This document shows positions 16,644 to 24,013 of a stretch of DNA of 24,013 bases, piece after piece. The translations under genes and the position numbers were made by a program. Source of the stretch: Sedimentisphaerales bacterium (GTDB taxonomy: Bacteria > Planctomycetota > Phycisphaerae > Sedimentisphaerales > Anaerobacaceae); the NCBI GenBank assembly GCA_030630905.1, contig DAOVMB010000001.1, positions 1-24,013 of the forward strand, given 5' to 3'. Within the stretch, counting starts at the first letter, position 1; each line of letters starts with the position of its first letter. A model generated the notes under the pieces. It was not told the origin of the DNA, did not search any database, and worked only from the letters and a program-made list of their open reading frames with translations.

Positions 16644-18611
16644 ATGCAGATTGCTAAAGCTATTATACTTGTAGGAAATCGTGACTTCGGGCGGTGTCCG
16701 CTTGCATCACGTTTGCCTACGGCTTTGTGGCCGGTAGCGGGGATATCTGTATTGGAACGCCTGCTGAGCCATTTAGTCGATCAGGGTATAAAAGAGGCAG
16801 TTATATGCGGCAGTGGTGCAAGTTCGTTAGTGGACAAAATGAATATTACTGATAATCGTTTGGCGTTGAGTATTTTTGATGAAACATTGCCGATGGGTAC
16901 CGCAGGATGTATTCGTGAGGTTGCCGGCGATCAAACTGAAGAATTACTTCTGGTGTTTCCCGCCGGCATAGTGTGTCCCCCGAAAATCGATATGCTGATA
17001 AAAGCACACCGTGACGGTCAGTCTGATTTAACTGTAATGTTGAATCCATGTTGTCGAAGCAAGACAGATATGGGCGAGGCATCTGGAATTTATGTTTGTA
17101 ATCCGGGTATCTTGAAACATATTCCAAAGGCAGGTTATTTTGATATCAAAGAAGGCTTGATTCCTAAGATGCTCCATGCCGGAAGAACAGTTCATGCCGC
17201 AAAGTTGCCATATCATGCCGGGAATTTTCGGAATCGGCAAGAATATTTATGTGCTGTTTCCAGTTACCTTGAAAATGTTCCAAAAATGAATGCGGATTTT
17301 AAATCCCTTAATAGCACCGATTCCGAAAATGTGTGGTTGGCGGAAAATGCAAAGGTTGATCCTAAAGCAAGAATTGATGGGCCGGTTGTTATTCTGGACG
17401 GTGCAACAGTATCGAGCGGGGCGGTTGTTCTCGGACCGGCCATCCTTGGGAAAAATGCTGCTATTAATAAAGATAGCGTTGTAATAAATAGTGTGCTATG
17501 GGATGACGCAAAAGTGGGCTCAAATTGTCAAATCCAGAGATGTGTGGTCGATTATCATGGAGTAGTTCGAGATAATGCCGTTATGGAAGATAAATCTATA
17601 TCATTCGAACCCGAGGGAGTGTTAGGACGTGTGGTCGATCTCGCCTCAATGGTTGTGAAAAATAATGCGAGTAGATTGCAGCTCGTATTGCAACCGCTTG
17701 ACAAAATTTCCGAAAAATTTCCGAATTGGACATGGTTGAGCAGAAAGAATATTCTGACATTTCTGGCATTAGGTCTTGTCTGTATCGCGTTTCTTTGGTC
17801 TTACTGGCCCGGCCTTGTTGAGCTTTGGGAATTGTGGCAACAAAGCGATGAATATTCCTCCGGTCTTTTGGTTCCTTTTCTGGCTGTTTATATCCTTTGG
17901 TCAAGGCGTCGTGATATAGCCTGTTGTCCTGTCAAGCCATCTATCTGGGGTTTGTTTGCTTTCGCGGGGGCCCAGGCAGTCAGACTTTTCGGGCTTTTCT
18001 TAATGTACAGTTCTGCAGAAAGGCTATCCGTAGTCCTGAGTATTGCTGCTTTGATATTACTGTTATTTGGCTGGAAGTTTTTCCGAAAGATATCTCCAAT
18101 ATTATTGTTTCTGTGTTTGATGCTGCCCCTGCCGAACATCATCCAGTACCATGTCGGCTTGAATCTGCAGCGTTGGGCTACTTCATCGGCGGTCTTCTGC
18201 CTTGAGGTGATAGGATATGCAGTCACACAGGACGGCCATACCATTGATATGGGTAACGTTAGTGTTGCGGTGCTTGAAGCTTGCAACGGCTTGAGAATGA
18301 TCACCGCCTTTTTTGTCATCAGCGGACTGGTTGTTCTACTGGTACAACGAACCTGGTGGGAAAAACTGGTCATTCTGGTTTCAAGCCTGCCTATTGCCTT
18401 ATTGTGTAACACTGTTCGATTGGCAATTACAGCGGTGTTTTTCACTATTCTTGAAGGTGAGTATTGGGAACAAATATTCCATGACTTCGGTGGGTATGCG
18501 ATGATGCCATTGGCTCTTGCGGCGGTAGTTGGCGAGCTTTGGCTTTTGGCAAAACTCACGGTGCTTCCAACCGAAGAAAAAGCAATAATAATTACACGAC
18601 AGGGGGGGTGA
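16644..18611 (+). CDS. Fusion protein: degenerate sugar-nucleotidyltransferase + LbH domain fused to an exosortase (EpsH/8TM)
   Basis: Residues 1-~210 resemble an NTP transferase (AIILVG..., LWPVAG.SVLERLL, MGTAGCI, SGIYV, FDIKEGLIP). Residues ~225-320 are hexapeptide repeats. From ~370 the protein is an exosortase: W....EYSSGLLVP, V.EACNGLR (Cys547), NTVR (Arg592), FHDFGG (His613). The frame is uninterrupted. Confidence 0.88.
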   Translation: MQIAKAIILVGNRDFGRCPLASRLPTALWPVAGISVLERLLSHLVDQGIKEAVICGSGASSLVDKMNITDNRLALSIFDETLPMGTAGCIREVAGDQTEELLLVFPAGIVCPPKIDMLIKAHRDGQSDLTVMLNPCCRSKTDMGEASGIYVCNPGILKHIPKAGYFDIKEGLIPKMLHAGRTVHAAKLPYHAGNFRNRQEYLCAVSSYLENVPKMNADFKSLNSTDSENVWLAENAKVDPKARIDGPVVILDGATVSSGAVVLGPAILGKNAAINKDSVVINSVLWDDAKVGSNCQIQRCVVDYHGVVRDNAVMEDKSISFEPEGVLGRVVDLASMVVKNNASRLQLVLQPLDKISEKFPNWTWLSRKNILTFLALGLVCIAFLWSYWPGLVELWELWQQSDEYSSGLLVPFLAVYILWSRRRDIACCPVKPSIWGLFAFAGAQAVRLFGLFLMYSSAERLSVVLSIAALILLLFGWKFFRKISPILLFLCLMLPLPNIIQYHVGLNLQRWATSSAVFCLEVIGYAVTQDGHTIDMGNVSVAVLEACNGLRMITAFFVISGLVVLLVQRTWWEKLVILVSSLPIALLCNTVRLAITAVFFTILEGEYWEQIFHDFGGYAMMPLALAAVVGELWLLAKLTVLPTEEKAIIITRQGG

Positions 18612-18681: not shown

Positions 18682-18693
18682 ATCAATATTGTT

Positions 18694-18698
18694 AGGAG
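18694..18698 (+). promoter_or_regulatory. Shine-Dalgarno site (AGGAG) for wzc
   Basis: AGGAG ends 8 nt before ATG 18707. Confidence 0.7.
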
Positions 18699-18706
18699 TA
18701 ATAGAA

Positions 18707-21040
18707 ATGAACGAATTAGATAAAATTCAAGATCCGGTGGTCGGGCAAGAAATTGTTAATATGCAAATTCCACCTGAACAAAGTGAAGATGCTACGTCGG
18801 ATATGGTGGCCGGTATTCTTCGCCGCTGGTACATTGTATTACTGATATTCTTAATAGTGTGCGGAATAGGCTTGCCTGCGATATGGCTTACTGTTAAGCC
18901 TGTGTACAATATAACCGGCGCGATAAGAGTTGCCCCTATTTTAGCGGACATCCTGAGCGGCGAACAGGACAGAGGGGAAATATCGAATTATGAAAGCTTT
19001 ATGAATACTCAGGCAGAAAAGATCACCAGCAATGCGGTAGTGCAGAGAGTTGCAGACGATTTGGTCGATAAGAATCTGTCCTTCTTTGAAGATGAACCAA
19101 CCGATCTGATCTTAAAGTGGAAGCAGAAATTATTGGGCACAAAAACTAAAACAGAGCCGGCAATGAAGTTGAAACAGGCTATTGTTGATGATGGGATTAT
19201 TATTGTTGCTGCAAACCGTCGTAATGAACTGATAAAAATCAATATGGAGAGCACGAATATTGAGGAAGCAAAGCAGATTGTGGATTCCTTTATTCGGGCA
19301 TATATGGATATCGAAGTTGTTAGTTCGGATGAGGGCGAGAACCGAAAGCTTGCTATCCTGGAAAACAGGCGTGACTTTCTTTACGAAAGGGTCGAAAACG
19401 ACCGCCAGACGATCTACCAGTTGGGGCAGGAATATGGGACTGTTGCATTGGAAGGGCGACAGGACATGATGCTGCAGCGTGTTGCGAGTCTGCTGGACAC
19501 ACTTACAGGTGTCGAGGCTGAAAGAATTAGACTCGAAGCTCGAGTCCAATTACTTGAACGCACCAGAGAGCAGGCCATCCCGGCTGAGGAGTTGCTGAAG
19601 ATGAGGCGAGATTATATAAATGAAGATCCTGCAGTCGTGGCGTTCACGCAAAATATTACGCAATTAGAGCAAGAACTTATTGTTGCCAGGCAGACGTTGT
19701 CCCCTACGAATCCGGAACTTTTACGGAAAGTTGAACTATCGAGAATATTAAAGGAACATCTGGAGAATCGAAAACAAGAGGCCAGCAATGCTTTTGATAA
19801 TTTGGTGGCTAAGGAAGCTGCGGAGGCCGGCAACAAACAGCTTGTAACTGTACGTAGTGAACTGGAGCAAACGCGAGAGTATGAAAAACGTCTCCAGGAT
19901 ATACTATCTCAACAAGACACTCAAACTATTGGAGTCGGCCGTAAGCAACTGACAATTCAGGAATTGCAGGATAGATTGAACTCGACGAAAGAAGCGTATG
20001 ATGTCGTACTCAAGCGTATCCAGGATTTGGAATTGCAGCGAAAACGTCCGACAAGGATTTCCGCGCATTATAATGCCGACATTAGCTCTATTAACGATAA
20101 GCGGATAAAATATTCGATAGGCCTGGTATTTGTCTCGCTTGTTTGTGGTATGGGATTGGCATATCTTCGAGATAAGGCTGATCAGAGTTTACGGACACCT
20201 GATGACGTAGCGAAGCGTATCGGTATTCGAATAATCGGGACTACTACAAGCTTGGACACTGTCAAGCCGGCCCTTCTTCCGGAACAGATAGTCGGAGATT
20301 ACCAGACTATTCGTGCCAACTTGGGGCTTCTTGGCGACAAAGGAATACCTAAGAAACTGGTTGTTACCAGTCCGGGTATGAAGGAGGGCAAAACTACATT
20401 TGCCGTTAATCTGGCAACAAGTCTGTCTGAGTCGGGGAAAAAGGTTTTACTCATAGATGGCGACTTGAGAAAACCTGATGTTGCTCGCCTGTTGAATCTT
20501 CCCAAGGGTTCAAGGGGACTTCATGACGTTCTCTGCGGAGTAAAATTTGACCAGGCTGTTTTCTCTGTAATTTCAACGGGCCTGGATGTGCTTGCGGCTG
20601 ATTTTCATGATGCAGCGGATGCTTACGAGTTGTTAGCCTTGTCATCGACAGCTAAACGCATAAATATAATCAGCAAAAAGTACGATCATGTGATTATTGA
20701 TACTCCTCCCGCACTGGTTTTCCCTGATGCTCTTATGTGGGCTAAGATCGGAAACGCTGTTATTTTGGTCAGCTTTGCCGGCCATACGACTTTGCCTGAT
20801 CTCAAAGAAGCGAAGGAACGACTGGCGCAGACTAATGTCAAGGTGCTGGGGACCGTACTGAGCAGCGTTCAGGCTGAGCATAGTTATTACCGCCACGGTC
20901 ATAGTTATTATGCGCAAAGTGCGGAATCAAGGGATAGCGCCAGAGTCTCCAGGAGAAAACTGATGTTCTCAATGGAAGAGAGTCCGGATTATATAGACGA
21001 CTCAGAGGCTACTGAATCTGAAGAGCCAACTGAGGCTTAA
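18707..21040 (+). CDS. wzc: Wzc/GumC-type polysaccharide co-polymerase with BY-kinase domain
   Basis: Two TM segments flank a long coiled-coil periplasmic region. Walker A VTSPGMKEGKTT, A' VLLIDGDLRKP, B VIIDTPP, Tyr cluster SYYRHGHSYY. AGGAG RBS at 18694-18698 supports ATG 18707. Confidence 0.92.
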   Translation: MNELDKIQDPVVGQEIVNMQIPPEQSEDATSDMVAGILRRWYIVLLIFLIVCGIGLPAIWLTVKPVYNITGAIRVAPILADILSGEQDRGEISNYESFMNTQAEKITSNAVVQRVADDLVDKNLSFFEDEPTDLILKWKQKLLGTKTKTEPAMKLKQAIVDDGIIIVAANRRNELIKINMESTNIEEAKQIVDSFIRAYMDIEVVSSDEGENRKLAILENRRDFLYERVENDRQTIYQLGQEYGTVALEGRQDMMLQRVASLLDTLTGVEAERIRLEARVQLLERTREQAIPAEELLKMRRDYINEDPAVVAFTQNITQLEQELIVARQTLSPTNPELLRKVELSRILKEHLENRKQEASNAFDNLVAKEAAEAGNKQLVTVRSELEQTREYEKRLQDILSQQDTQTIGVGRKQLTIQELQDRLNSTKEAYDVVLKRIQDLELQRKRPTRISAHYNADISSINDKRIKYSIGLVFVSLVCGMGLAYLRDKADQSLRTPDDVAKRIGIRIIGTTTSLDTVKPALLPEQIVGDYQTIRANLGLLGDKGIPKKLVVTSPGMKEGKTTFAVNLATSLSESGKKVLLIDGDLRKPDVARLLNLPKGSRGLHDVLCGVKFDQAVFSVISTGLDVLAADFHDAADAYELLALSSTAKRINIISKKYDHVIIDTPPALVFPDALMWAKIGNAVILVSFAGHTTLPDLKEAKERLAQTNVKVLGTVLSSVQAEHSYYRHGHSYYAQSAESRDSARVSRRKLMFSMEESPDYIDDSEATESEEPTEA

Positions 21041-21079: not shown

Positions 21080-22813
21080 ATGTTGTTCCTTAACCTATCC
21101 ATGAACATGATTCTTATACACAGGAATTCTGCAGACAGCAGCGGCGAGAGTTTGCTTCGTTTTGCTCTGGCCAGCGAGCCTGTTGCCGGCGTTGTTTTCG
21201 ATGGATTGTGTAAGTATGGAGACATGAGGAGGGATTCTATATTACGGTTATCTGCAAAATGGAATTTCGATAAGACTTTTTATGCCATCCCGGAGGAATG
21301 GGAAATTGAACCTTTCGGATCCCGGCATCAAAATCAGATGCCGCGACAGTCTTTGTATGATGTAAAGCCGAATGTAATACGTTACAAAGATAATATACCT
21401 GTCCCCTTAGAGCTTGTGGCTGGAGCTAAACGAGAGGGTAGCTTAAACTCATGGTTCGTTGTGTCCAATGGGCGATTTGCCACGAACATCAACGCCGATT
21501 TCCTCGAAAGTGTGCTTGCCGGCGTCCAGGCAGACGTAGTGGCGGTCAATGCAGAACCCGGGCTGTTGGGACAACGCGAAAAAGTGCGATTGACAGCCGA
21601 AGGCAAGGTGGCGGGTTTCTGCCGGGCCTATTCGGATTCAGCCGAATTTACATTTGTTTCTACTGAGTGGCCTCATCATCTTTTTATTAAAACCGACGTT
21701 CTCGGTCGTGTATTGGTGGATGAAGCTTTGCCTTTATCTTTTTCCGCTCTTTCAGAAATATGCCGATCAAAAGAAATAATGTTGCGGGCGATTAACGTAG
21801 GTGGAAATGTGCTGGATTTGGAAACTGAAGATGGATTGCTGGGCTTATGTGAAACGAGGCTTTCGAATATCCAGAAATCTAAATTTGAACTTCAAGATTC
21901 GAATACAATATCCGATGATGCAAGACTAAAAGGGAAGGTGCTGTTAGGAAAGAATATTCACATCGGTCCGAAGGCCGTTGTTATTGGTCCGACCATTATC
22001 TGCAATGAAGCCAGGATTGAGCGGGGGGCTGTTATAAATTCATCAATAGTTGGTCCGAAAGTATGTGTGCCCAAGAATCAATTTGTGCAGAGCCGTACTA
22101 TCAAAGGGCCACAAATTAATTGGAATCGCCCGGTTCGACACAAAAGCAGGAGAAGCTTGTTGCAGGATTCTCATGGGCCGTTTCGCGCCTGGCCGGGAAT
22201 TTCCTATGCGCGATGCTTCAAACGAATTGCCGATTGTTTTGCCGCGGCAATAGTACTGATTCTGTTTGCTCCCGTGTTGATATTTGTTGCTCTGGCAATA
22301 AAATTAACTTCGCCGGGCCCGGTGTTTTATAAGGATCGACGTCAGGGGCTGCACGGCAAGCAGTTCAACTGTCTGAAATTCAGGACGATGATTATCGGGG
22401 CTGATAAGATACAGGAGATATTGCGAATCGTCAGCCAGGTGGATGGCCCGCAATTTAAGATAGCCAATGATCCTCGAATCAATACCGTAGGCTGGTTTCT
22501 GCGGGAAACATATATCGATGAGATACCCCAGTTCTTTAATGTTCTGTTTGGCCAGATGAGTATTGTCGGTCCGAGGCCCTCCCCTAAATCGGAGAATACG
22601 TTGTGCCCGTTATGGCGTGACGCCCGACTATCGGTTCGACCGGGAATTACGGGACTATGGCAGGTTTACAGGACACGCCAGCCAATGAAAGACTTTCAGG
22701 AATGGATACATTATGACGTCGAATATGTCAGGAATCTATCGCTGTGGATGGATTTAAGTATATGTTGGAAAACAGCAATGAAACTTTTAGGAAATTTCAT
22801 TAACCAATTCTAA
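21080..22813 (+). CDS. Fusion protein: degenerate nucleotidyltransferase-like + LbH domain fused to a priming phosphoglycosyl transferase (Bac_transf; WcaJ/PglC-like)
   Basis: C-terminal KRIAD...LILFAP...IKLTSPGPVFY...G..GK.F...KFRTM, IDEIPQ (Asp-Glu dyad), GQMSIVGPRP, RLSVRPGITGLWQV. LbH at ~21908-22108. N-terminal remnants: FVVSNGRF, RLTAEGKVAGF, VLDLETEDGL. Alternative starts at 21101 and 21107. Confidence 0.87.
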   Translation: MLFLNLSMNMILIHRNSADSSGESLLRFALASEPVAGVVFDGLCKYGDMRRDSILRLSAKWNFDKTFYAIPEEWEIEPFGSRHQNQMPRQSLYDVKPNVIRYKDNIPVPLELVAGAKREGSLNSWFVVSNGRFATNINADFLESVLAGVQADVVAVNAEPGLLGQREKVRLTAEGKVAGFCRAYSDSAEFTFVSTEWPHHLFIKTDVLGRVLVDEALPLSFSALSEICRSKEIMLRAINVGGNVLDLETEDGLLGLCETRLSNIQKSKFELQDSNTISDDARLKGKVLLGKNIHIGPKAVVIGPTIICNEARIERGAVINSSIVGPKVCVPKNQFVQSRTIKGPQINWNRPVRHKSRRSLLQDSHGPFRAWPGISYARCFKRIADCFAAAIVLILFAPVLIFVALAIKLTSPGPVFYKDRRQGLHGKQFNCLKFRTMIIGADKIQEILRIVSQVDGPQFKIANDPRINTVGWFLRETYIDEIPQFFNVLFGQMSIVGPRPSPKSENTLCPLWRDARLSVRPGITGLWQVYRTRQPMKDFQEWIHYDVEYVRNLSLWMDLSICWKTAMKLLGNFINQF

Positions 22814-22833: not shown

Positions 22834-24013
22834 ATGCCGGGAAGATACTTTAACTGGAAATTGGCAATTGTTTTGGTTATCAGCCTTATTGTTTTAGGCA
22901 TAAGCGCTTTTGGACTTCGCCAATGGCGCAGGACCAATAGAGCCGATCAGGGTCTTATCCTTGGCAATAAGGCATATAACGAGCATAGGTGGGAAGATGC
23001 GGCGGAACATCTGGGAAGTTATATTACTTTGGAACGAAATAACGTGTCTATATTGCTTAAATATGCTGACGCTCAGCTTAAAATCAGGCCTGCCAAACGT
23101 AACAGAATTCAACAAGCCATCGGAGCATATCGAACTATATTAAGAGTAGATAGAAATAATTCCGAAGCTGCTATGCAGCTTACTGAAATCTACCTGGGTA
23201 TAGGCAGTCCCGGCGAAGCGGAGCTAATTGCCAGAAGACAGCTTGAAACCAATCCGGATCCCGGTCTTCGGAGGATGTTGGCCCTTGCGATGGCTGGACA
23301 AAGAAAGTTCAAAGAAGCAGCAGCGGAATTAAAGAGCATTTTACAGGGACATCCTGAGCAGGTATTAGCATACGAAACATTAGGCCGACTTATAGAGCAG
23401 CGTCCGGGAGATTTTAAGGATGTGCCGTCCCATTGGTTCAATCAGGCCGTGGAGAAAAATCCGTCTTCTGCTTTGGCATATATAATACGAGCGGGTTTTT
23501 ATCGAAGAAGTGAAGACTTATCAAGTGCTTCATCTGACCTGGAACGAGCCGAAAAGCAGGATTTGTCTGATTCATCTGTCCGTTTGCGTCTTGCACAAGA
23601 ACTTATCAATTCAAATGCTCTCGACAAGGCAGAGGTGCATCTTGTTGCAGTGCAAGAAGCCTCGCCAACTGACAAGGATCTTTGGACAACATGGGCCGGG
23701 CTTGCATTGAAATCACGATCTAAAGAAAAAATGTTAAAAATAGCCGAAACAGGATTAAAAGAGCTTTCTTCTCAGCCATGGGATTTTATGCCCCTGGCCA
23801 CTGAGTTATTTATCCGTTCCGGTAAGCTCGAAGATGCTAATGACTGTATCTCTAAAATGTACGAAAAGGATGTTTCTTCGGCGTCAATTACATTCTTGCG
23901 AGGTCTTGTGGCTTCCGGGCAGGGAAATCTGCTTGGTGCGGTCAAATATTGGCGGCAGTCAATGGAATCAGGTAACAAATCCATACATGTCCGCCTGGCA
24001 TTGGCATCGGGGC
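22834..24013 (+). CDS. Membrane-anchored tetratricopeptide-repeat protein, 5' part (runs off the window)
   Basis: My translation from ATG 22834 is open to the window end: MPGRYFNWKLAIVLVISLIVLGISAFGLRQW (TM anchor), then helical repeats with TPR signatures (e.g. QAIGAYRTILRVDRNNSEA, KFKEAAAELKSILQGHPEQ, WFNQAVEKNPSSALAY). It is missing from the ORF track because it has no stop. Confidence 0.85.
   Translation, partial: MPGRYFNWKLAIVLVISLIVLGISAFGLRQWRRTNRADQGLILGNKAYNEHRWEDAAEHLGSYITLERNNVSILLKYADAQLKIRPAKRNRIQQAIGAYRTILRVDRNNSEAAMQLTEIYLGIGSPGEAELIARRQLETNPDPGLRRMLALAMAGQRKFKEAAAELKSILQGHPEQVLAYETLGRLIEQRPGDFKDVPSHWFNQAVEKNPSSALAYIIRAGFYRRSEDLSSASSDLERAEKQDLSDSSVRLRLAQELINSNALDKAEVHLVAVQEASPTDKDLWTTWAGLALKSRSKEKMLKIAETGLKELSSQPWDFMPLATELFIRSGKLEDANDCISKMYEKDVSSASITFLRGLVASGQGNLLGAVKYWRQSMESGNKSIHVRLALASG

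Follow-up and report, generated by a model that had tools for sequence, protein, structure and literature searches.

A priming phosphoglycosyl transferase bearing a predicted pseudo-pyrophosphorylase module, and a candidate partner module on a co-encoded exosortase, in a Sedimentisphaerales exopolysaccharide locus

The window analysed here is an entire 24-kb contig (24,013 nucleotides; DAOVMB010000001.1 of assembly GCA_030630905.1) from a 64% complete metagenome-assembled genome (MAG) of a Sedimentisphaerales bacterium, and the gene under study, close to its 3′ end, encodes a priming phosphoglycosyl transferase (PGT) to which a long N-terminal module is fused. Computational analysis indicates that this module has the fold of a nucleoside diphosphate (NDP)-sugar pyrophosphorylase, consisting of a nucleotidyltransferase (NTase) domain followed by a short left-handed beta-helix (LbH), that it has lost its catalytic residues and is kept by purifying selection, and that an exosortase encoded in the same locus carries a paralogous module which appears to be dead as well. 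We give about an even chance to the reading in which the pseudoenzyme module of the PGT pairs with the paralogous module of the exosortase and so couples or regulates polysaccharide priming and protein sorting. An earlier description made from the letters of the window (the sequence-only reading) had considered the gene in isolation and had taken the N-terminal region to be a non-catalytic domain that senses or channels the NDP-sugar donor; the present data point to a partnership with the dead module of the exosortase, beyond that view.

The C-terminal core of the fusion protein is predicted to be an active monotopic PGT of the PglC type. Residues 381-570 match Pfam Bac_transf (PF02397) with 207 bits (E 1.9e-61; cut-off 27) over profile positions 1-178 of 179, and the core can be aligned over its full length with the catalytic domains of WbaP (8t53, 9s7s) and PglC (8e37). 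The NCBIfam models EPS_sugtrans, WcaJ, WbaP and EpsZ give matches below their cut-offs that are confined to the last ~190 model positions, and the protein thus shares the catalytic core of those enzymes and not their N-terminal halves. The motifs KFRTM (residues 433-437), the D480-E481 dyad (bases 22517-22522), GPRP (497-500) and PGITGLWQ are invariant in 64 homologues, the first three aligning with their WbaP counterparts; the roles of the DE dyad, KFR(T/S)M, GPRP and PGxTGLWQ are known from the PglC/WbaP literature. The PglC-like minimal core that had been recognised earlier from DEIPQ (bases 22517-22531, residues 480-484) and GPRP was therefore correctly identified. The sole hydrophobic segment of the protein, residues 379-417, is situated at the position of the PglC re-entrant helix, contains a conserved F396-A397-P398 and is a putative re-entrant membrane helix, in a part of the protein where the structure model is poor. 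No hydrophobic segment was detected in residues 1-378, nor did a Pfam scan of the protein give a match to PF13727. As 379-417 is the only hydrophobic segment, the N-terminal 375 residues are predicted to be soluble, and going by the known topology of monotopic PGTs (monoPGTs) they would be cytoplasmic.

The fold of this N-terminal region had been named beforehand as the decisive check on the sequence-only reading, and the outcome was an NTase plus LbH fold. In an AlphaFold model built on 64 homologues, with a predicted local distance difference test score (pLDDT) of 85-94 across most of residues 100-345, residues 7-354 match nearly whole chains of NDP-sugar pyrophosphorylases (Foldseek E ~1e-10; VIA Z 15.4 to 13.3), residues 1-357 of the VTC1/GMPPB chain being aligned to this stretch of the model at VIA Z 15.1-15.4. 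NTase plus LbH proteins make up the top 47 of the 50 PDB entries among the matches listed, these being VTC1, GMPPB/GMPPA, Leishmania GDP-mannose pyrophosphorylase (GDP-MP), ST0452, ADP-glucose pyrophosphorylase (AGPase) and eIF2B gamma/epsilon, and the language-model neighbours of the module are NDP-sugar synthases. For the beta-helix, which had been noted from residue 277, the model has short strands in beta-helix register over residues 282-337 and the family profile matches the GlmU LbH (E 1.5e-15); with the single sequence the Pfam scores stay below the cut-offs (Hexapep 22.5 against 27; LbH_EIF2B 25.8 against 54). The NTase part escapes such searches: no match to PF00483 NTP_transferase was obtained for the fusion protein with Pfam at E <= 1, and searches of the module against Pfam, NCBIfam and PDB profiles detected the NTase/LbH junction and the LbH only, rmlA_long matching residues 210-312 and man1P_GTase residues 232-316. 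Since the NTase part is invisible to sequence searches, its assignment depends on the model and on a profile-profile bridge through the module of the exosortase, by which the region probably folds as an NDP-sugar pyrophosphorylase of the GMPPB/VTC1/eIF2B-gamma,epsilon/AGPase type. The stretch of ~370 aa before the core, described earlier as a degenerate, non-catalytic NTase with an LbH, has kept that description and been revised in extent, the module proper being ~350 aa, followed by a basic linker of ~25 aa.

The catalytic equipment of the parent enzymes has been replaced at nearly every position that could be compared, using equivalences taken from a hidden Markov model (HMM) alignment of the exosortase module with Leishmania GDP-MP and from an hhalign alignment of the two modules. 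Residues 10-38 of the PGT module retain the beta-1 strand, a 23-residue loop of canonical length and a PVAG motif, but where GGxGTRLxPL...PKPL is expected the module has HRNSADSSGES...ALAS, of the same length, which agrees with the reported absence of the GGxGTR loop. The N(S/G)D motif has become NGR, and at least 90% of homologues have R132; the VxxFxEKP hairpin reads VAGFCRAY, with EK replaced by RA; and at the WxDxG position only the Asp is kept, as the invariant D246. The strings which had been quoted as NTase remnants, FVVSNGRF (126-133), VRLTAEGKVAGF (169-180) and VLDLETEDGL (244-253), are all present and fall on the NSD motif, the VxxFxEKP hairpin and the WxDxG motif of genuine enzymes, respectively, and were thus rightly placed. 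It is unlikely, judging from these replacements, that the old NDP-sugar site has been inherited for donor sensing or channelling, because nearly all residues that bind the nucleotide and sugar phosphate are gone and D246 alone is kept.

The substitutions do not have the appearance of random loss. The replacement residues are conserved in both the PGT and the exosortase modules, and an alignment of 79 sequences with a mean column identity of 23% retains the near-invariant motifs SNGR, AGFRRxYSDS, WPHH and GGxxLDL in the PGT module. More than 500 proteins (90% identity clusters) share the fusion architecture; when 1.84 billion representatives were searched exhaustively with HMMER, 182 proteins reached E <= 0.001, among which nine sampled full-length matches, with 24 to 40% identity in the N-module, all carried Bac_transf and none NTP_transferase, and the list was not flooded by canonical pyrophosphorylases. 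The ratio of non-synonymous to synonymous substitution rates (dN/dS) against six relatives was 0.22-0.47 for the NTase-like part and 0.20-0.58 for the LbH as compared to 0.05-0.13 for the PGT core, indicating that the module is constrained, albeit less tightly than an active site would be. Mean distances across the segments of the cassette described below (49 loci) were 0.86 for the PGT-side module, the fastest segment, 0.67 for the exosortase-side module, 0.54 for the tetratricopeptide repeat (TPR) protein, 0.33 for the exosortase and 0.27 for the PGT core. We conclude from these sequence comparisons that the N-module is a pseudoenzyme domain under purifying selection and not debris. The module was found in 64 species-level genomes labelled Phycisphaerae, Sedimentisphaerales, 'Pirellulales' or Planctomycetota, with one Aegiribacteria and one Lentimicrobiaceae label that may be binning errors.

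The second fusion of the window joins a related module to an exosortase. Here the resemblance to pyrophosphorylases is discernible from sequence, as man1P_GTase matches with 93 bits over the whole protein (best stretch 5-134), LbH_EIF2B with 49 bits and NTP_transferase with 23.7 bits (cut-off 21.2). Compared with Leishmania GDP-MP, GGFGTRLRPL has been replaced by GNRDFGRCPL, PKPL by PTAL, NSD by PAG and WMDVG by HAGNF, while among 45 homologues the substitutes D14, R17 and N194 are invariant, N194 being at the WxDxG Asp, and T26 is nearly so. The exosortase domain scores 186 bits with PF09721 and 127 bits with TIGR02602 (cut-off 105.55), the best-scoring exosortase model being VPLPA-CTERM XrtD, and its C547, R592 and H613 are invariant in the same 45 homologues; this NTase module therefore appears to be dead too, and the exosortase itself looks active. 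Approximately 730 homologues share the module-exosortase architecture. The two modules of the window are paralogous over both NTase and LbH (hhalign 98.9%, E 1.7e-17, columns 42-324 against 46-321). Candidate substrates of the exosortase were also found: two open reading frames (ORFs) in the same MAG (contigs C434 and C490) end in a sorting-type tail composed of a P-x-P motif, a transmembrane (TM) helix and a basic cluster, and in a related locus (L006, 16678-21665) a GerE regulator gene and a tandem array of five genes for small secreted proteins with the same type of tail lie 3′ of the TPR gene. The tail motif is P-A-P (IPAPGA-type) and not the canonical P-E-P. Exosortase, substrates, TPR protein and exopolysaccharide (EPS) genes together indicate, at the level of gene content, that the system is a complete exosortase/EPS locus.

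The two module-bearing genes are parts of one conserved cassette, in which a module-exosortase gene is followed by a gene for a polysaccharide co-polymerase (PCP)/bacterial tyrosine kinase (BY-kinase), by the module-PGT gene and by a TPR gene of ~1400 aa. This order was observed in five of the five metagenome contigs with enough flank, even at an N-module identity of 25-31%, and, in a search for related loci at species level that was seeded with 15 closer sequences, in 54 of the 54 loci with enough upstream flank; the ten loci without a complete exosortase fusion all end too early upstream. In an even set of 401 Planctomycetota genomes the full-length PGT module occurs in 10, and in each of them the same contig carries the exosortase fusion at a distance of 3.5-4.3 kb upstream. 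The exosortase-type module is present in 15 genomes of this set, in 11 of which it is fused to an exosortase; 10 of these 11 also have the full-length PGT module, and the remaining one, an assembly in 700 contigs, contains PGT-module fragments. Three further genomes encode the exosortase-type module as a free-standing protein (~420-440 aa), and one has an A-like module joined directly to a PGT; in all 15, the exosortase-type module adjoins, or is fused with, a PGT whose N-terminal part is an LbH or an NTase plus LbH. In the one free-standing case that was inspected in detail (L013, G289:C74, 6570-9529, minus strand) an exosortase-type module of 431 aa lies directly upstream of a 584-aa LbH-PGT fusion, the cassette continuing with DUF3485/EpsI, a 983-aa PCP/kinase and a TPR protein; G348 and G387 likewise have neighbouring ORFs of corresponding sizes (417-425 aa and 622-631 aa). 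The free-standing protein aligns with the exosortase module by hhalign at 99.9% (E 4e-34, 31% identity, 328 columns). By Rosetta-stone logic applied to the fused and free-standing variants, the PGT fusion would be the constant partner of the exosortase-type module, and the fusion to exosortase probably an addition in one large lineage.

The possibility of direct contact between the two modules was assessed by complex prediction with exosortase protein residues 1-345 and PGT protein residues 8-360, using family alignments and three controls. An ipSAE of 0.63 was obtained (runs 0.62, 0.65 and 0.63) as compared to 0.00 for the best control, the mark applied being one that is reached by 58 of 80 solved complexes and by 2 of 110 mismatched pairs. 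The predicted interface is formed by the LbH faces and a conserved hairpin (PGT protein residues 167-181), and on the PGT side the interface residues exceed random subsets in conservation (64 of 10000), in a test that is lenient given that these residues are contiguous. In the arrangement which we favour, the PGT would prime the exopolysaccharide of the locus on polyprenyl phosphate, and its dead, cytoplasmic NTase plus LbH module would be one half of a pair of which the other half is on the exosortase. Contact between the two modules would be made at the cytoplasmic side of the membrane, by way of the LbH faces and the conserved beta-hairpin, and this pairing would either keep the exosortase attached to the priming transferase or allow one to regulate the other, such that initiation of the polysaccharide is coupled to the sorting of proteins with IPAPGA-type C-terminal signals. 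In other lineages the PGT module may pair with the free-standing paralogue.

Several observations weigh against this arrangement. The evidence for contact comes from a single structure predictor, from which we infer both the association and its purpose, and the prediction covers the hetero pair only; the pass may moreover reflect prior exposure of the predictor to the solved homo- and hetero-oligomers in this fold family. On the exosortase side the conservation of the interface residues does not exceed the average (3013 of 10000). A mirror-tree analysis of six segments in 49 loci plus the window placed the module pair in mid-rank (partial r 0.25), an uninformative result in which no specific co-evolution was seen. 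Synteny by itself would be seen between any two members of a single EPS/exosortase operon, and every carrier is an uncultured MAG. Taken together, the model-based evidence leaves physical pairing of the modules evenly balanced. A more specific version, in which the heterodimer acts as a clamp and the exosortase uses the adjacent polyprenyl-diphosphate-linked sugar as acceptor for cleaved IPAPGA-signal proteins, is doubtful; if true, it would represent a Gram-negative counterpart of the use of lipid II by sortase, and it would explain the occurrence of exosortases in EPS loci.

The principal alternative, in essence that of the sequence-only reading, dispenses with the hetero pair and considers the PGT module a self-associating regulator that dimerises or trimerises its own enzyme and/or senses a nucleotide or NDP-sugar, the exosortase module doing likewise independently. 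The model for such a role is the domain of unknown function (DUF) of WbaP, which mediates dimerisation, binds UMP/UDP and regulates activity (PMC10942596). LbH domains commonly homo-oligomerise, and the conserved polar residues R132, R170, R182, D186, H199, H200 and D246 could line a new pocket. GMPPA, whose structure (7d72) is among the top fold matches, is a dead member of the fold that serves as an allosteric sensor of GDP-mannose. A sensing function must nevertheless be reconciled with the replacement of the G-loop, the Lys, the NGD Asp and the EKP, by which the parent enzymes bind nucleotide and sugar phosphate, and self-regulation leaves unexplained why a free-standing exosortase-type module adjoins the PGT fusion where it is unfused to an exosortase; we regard this alternative as a real possibility, though on balance an unlikely one. 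It is quite improbable that the PGT module is instead the docking site or substrate of the Wzc-like BY-kinase, with Tyr phosphorylation as a switch for both PGT and exosortase. In every locus examined the two fusion genes do flank the PCP/BY-kinase gene, the PGT module has two almost invariant tyrosines, Y102 and Y184, that could be targets, and kinase activation is reported for CapM, a small PGT of S. aureus (PMC10942596, introduction), yet direct support was not found, PCP/BY-kinases are standard in EPS loci whatever the architecture of the PGT, and the mirror-tree partial correlations between PCP and either module were low or negative.

The two remaining alternatives concern the module alone. 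A truly bifunctional enzyme, in which the N-module makes an NDP-sugar with a divergent site or the LbH is an acyltransferase as in Neisseria PglB or GlmU, would have a precedent in the recognised class of bifunctional PGTs (Bi-PGTs) with a fused acetyltransferase or glycosyltransferase (PMC11626204), and might be read into the profile match to the GlmU LbH (E 1e-15) and a weak NeuD/PglB/VioB match of 29 bits. The latter is far under its cut-off (29 against 160.8), however, and the LbH of only ~80 residues is of the non-catalytic GMPPB_C/eIF2B type. The NTase catalytic signature is replaced throughout, there is no Pfam NTP_transferase match, and the dN/dS of the module is 3-6x that of the catalytic PGT core. 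When a catalytically intact NTase-LbH-PGT ancestor was sought, only four PGT fusions in which an NTP_transferase is recognisable were found, and each of them lacks part of the set of GGxGTR, Lys and Asp, so that the search yielded no living bifunctional relative; we hold a bifunctional enzyme to be very improbable. The loss of catalytic residues and the position of the PGT module as the fastest-evolving part of the cassette (0.86, against 0.27 for the PGT core) would also fit a functionless, decaying remnant, to which we nonetheless give almost no credence, given that the module is present at full length in over 500 proteins and in 64 species-level genomes, even where identity falls to ~25%, with dN/dS well below 1, invariant or near-invariant motifs and a confident fold prediction.

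PGTs are classified as small, as large, with four TM helices and a nucleotide-sensing DUF, or as bifunctional (PMC11626204, PMC10942596), and by its sequence the fusion protein appears to fit none of the three strictly. It shares with PglC and the catalytic domain of WbaP the same core (a putative re-entrant helix, KFRTM, DE dyad, GPRP and PGxTGLWQ), but PglC of Campylobacter has nothing before that core where the protein described here has a soluble pseudo-pyrophosphorylase module of 350 aa, and the large, WbaP-type PGTs have a four-helix membrane bundle and the PF13727 nucleotide-sensing DUF, both of which are lacking here. The Bi-PGTs likewise carry an extra globular domain on a minimal PGT core, and the LbH repeats could prompt annotation as an acetyltransferase fusion; their second domain is catalytic, however, whereas the domain in question has no catalytic residues and is of the GMPPB/eIF2B type and not a PglD/GlmU-type acetyltransferase. 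No description of the architecture was found in the searchable literature, a coverage that does not extend to the census of monoPGT fusions by O'Toole et al. (2021, PNAS), which may therefore list it.

The nearest relatives of the modules in structure are soluble enzymes. GMPPA/GMPPB, VTC1/KONJAC and the large and small subunits of plant AGPase, which are the best structural matches, have the same two-domain fold, and are pairs in which a catalytically impaired paralogue regulates another copy (structures 7d72 and 8yre). Unlike these soluble GMPPA/B, VTC1/KJC and AGPase complexes, which have at least one active subunit, the system described here has two paralogues that both look dead and are attached to different membrane proteins. 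The system also resembles the gamma and epsilon subunits of eIF2B, paralogous non-catalytic NTase plus LbH proteins that heterodimerise as a scaffold, the modules here being likewise paralogous and co-encoded; LbH_EIF2B is the best Pfam LbH model for both modules, and eIF2B gives fold matches at Z 14-15. However, eIF2B is a eukaryotic translation factor unrelated to membranes or glycans, and there is no sign of direct descent to the present modules.

The locus as a whole is akin to the EPS loci with PEP-CTERM/exosortase systems (EpsH, XrtA/XrtD), with which it shares the exosortase Cys/Arg/His, a putative PrsT-like TPR protein, a chain-length determinant/BY-kinase, an exosortase-associated amidotransferase, an acyl-CoA ligase and secreted proteins that end in P-x-P, TM helix and basic cluster. 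Haft et al. 2006 (PMC1569441) noted that exosortases associate with EPS genes, for a reason that was left unexplained, and described fusions of exosortases to C-terminal EpsI and CAAX protease, but neither an N-terminal cytoplasmic NTase-like module on the exosortase nor a matching module on a priming transferase is reported there. Control of a monoPGT by a cytoplasmic partner has been proposed for EpsW-EpsZ of Myxococcus xanthus, where the partner would promote an oligomeric state (PMC12802240), although EpsW is a phosphorylated single-domain response regulator and EpsZ a large-type PGT, unlike the modules and the PGT in question. It is plausible that the accessory domain has a regulatory or scaffold role, as PGT control is known in EpsW-EpsZ (PMC12802240) and in the WbaP DUF (PMC10942596), beside which the recycling of an inactivated sugar-nucleotide enzyme as an accessory domain would represent a third solution.

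Priming transferases control the flux into every Wzx/Wzy polysaccharide pathway, and their own regulation is only beginning to emerge, as in the WbaP DUF and EpsW-EpsZ. If the favoured pairing of the PGT module with its exosortase paralogue is correct, a recycled module on both proteins would provide, for the first time, a concrete physical connection, open to testing, between exosortase sorting and the initiation of a polysaccharide. Both soluble modules are small enough for co-expression, although the carriers are uncultured Planctomycetota. The findings are also a warning for annotation, as the names 'sugar transferase', 'NDP-sugar pyrophosphorylase' and 'exosortase' hide the dead pyrophosphorylase part.

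All of the large genes of the window are encoded on the + strand and together make up an exopolysaccharide/exosortase locus, which comprises glycosyltransferases, an exosortase-associated AsnB-type amidotransferase, an acyl-CoA ligase, an aminotransferase, a WbuX-like protein and SGNH and AT3 acyltransferase genes, and in its 3′ part the exosortase, the Wzc-like co-polymerase/BY-kinase, the PGT fusion gene and the start of the PrsT-like TPR gene (Table 1). The TPR gene is the immediate 3′ neighbour of the PGT fusion gene in all loci examined, and its truncated 393-aa piece scores 68.6 bits with the PrsT TPR model TIGR02917 (cut-off 312). The PGT fusion gene more likely starts at 21101 than at 21080, because the more distant homologues begin with MNLI or MNMI at the position of M8 (MNMILIH...); a Shine-Dalgarno motif was sought before both ATG codons, 21080 and 21101, and was visible at neither.

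Table 1. Coordinates of the two fusion genes, their predicted domains and the adjoining genes in the window (residues of the PGT fusion are counted from 21080)
Feature	Coordinates	Strand	Remarks
Whole PGT fusion ORF: pseudo-NTase + LbH + monotopic PGT (predicted)	21080..22813	+	577 aa; 570 aa from ATG 21101
NTase-like (Rossmann-like) domain, predicted to be catalytically dead	21101..21865	+	residues ~8-262
Short left-handed beta-helix, GMPPB_C / LbH_EIF2B type (predicted)	21866..22114	+	residues ~263-345
Basic linker, low model confidence	22115..22204	+	residues ~346-375
PGT catalytic core	22205..22813	+	residues 376-577
Exosortase fusion: pseudo-NTase + LbH (residues 1-345) + exosortase (381-635)	16644..18611	+	
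Wzc-like polysaccharide co-polymerase / BY-kinase	18689..21040	+	always between the two fusion genes
Giant PrsT-like TPR protein, 5′ part	22834..24013	+	runs off contig end; ~1400 aa in relatives

Some further features were observed in these proteins and their relatives. Residues 47-95 of the PGT module (21218-21364) form a length-variable insertion of low model confidence in the NTase-like domain, which carries an invariant A-x-P-E-x-W (AIPEEW; P71, W74) that may be a short linear interaction motif. A different type of PGT fusion, of which about four proteins were found, is exemplified by L015 (G136:C20, 6583-8676), in which the PGT is joined to a recognisable NTP_transferase (46.9 bits) and an LbH; its NTP_transferase signature is degenerate (GGPGSVR, the NGD Asp being absent), and it adjoins thioesterase and ABC-transporter genes with no exosortase. 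A metagenomic protein of 482 aa (P0233) combines an AAA_31/BY-kinase domain with a segment that corresponds to residues 122-229 of the PGT module, and may be either a gene-call artefact or a further kinase-module fusion. The Wzc-like protein of the window ends (20930-21040) in a Tyr-rich tail, SYYRHGHSYYAQS, typical of the autophosphorylation sites of BY-kinases.

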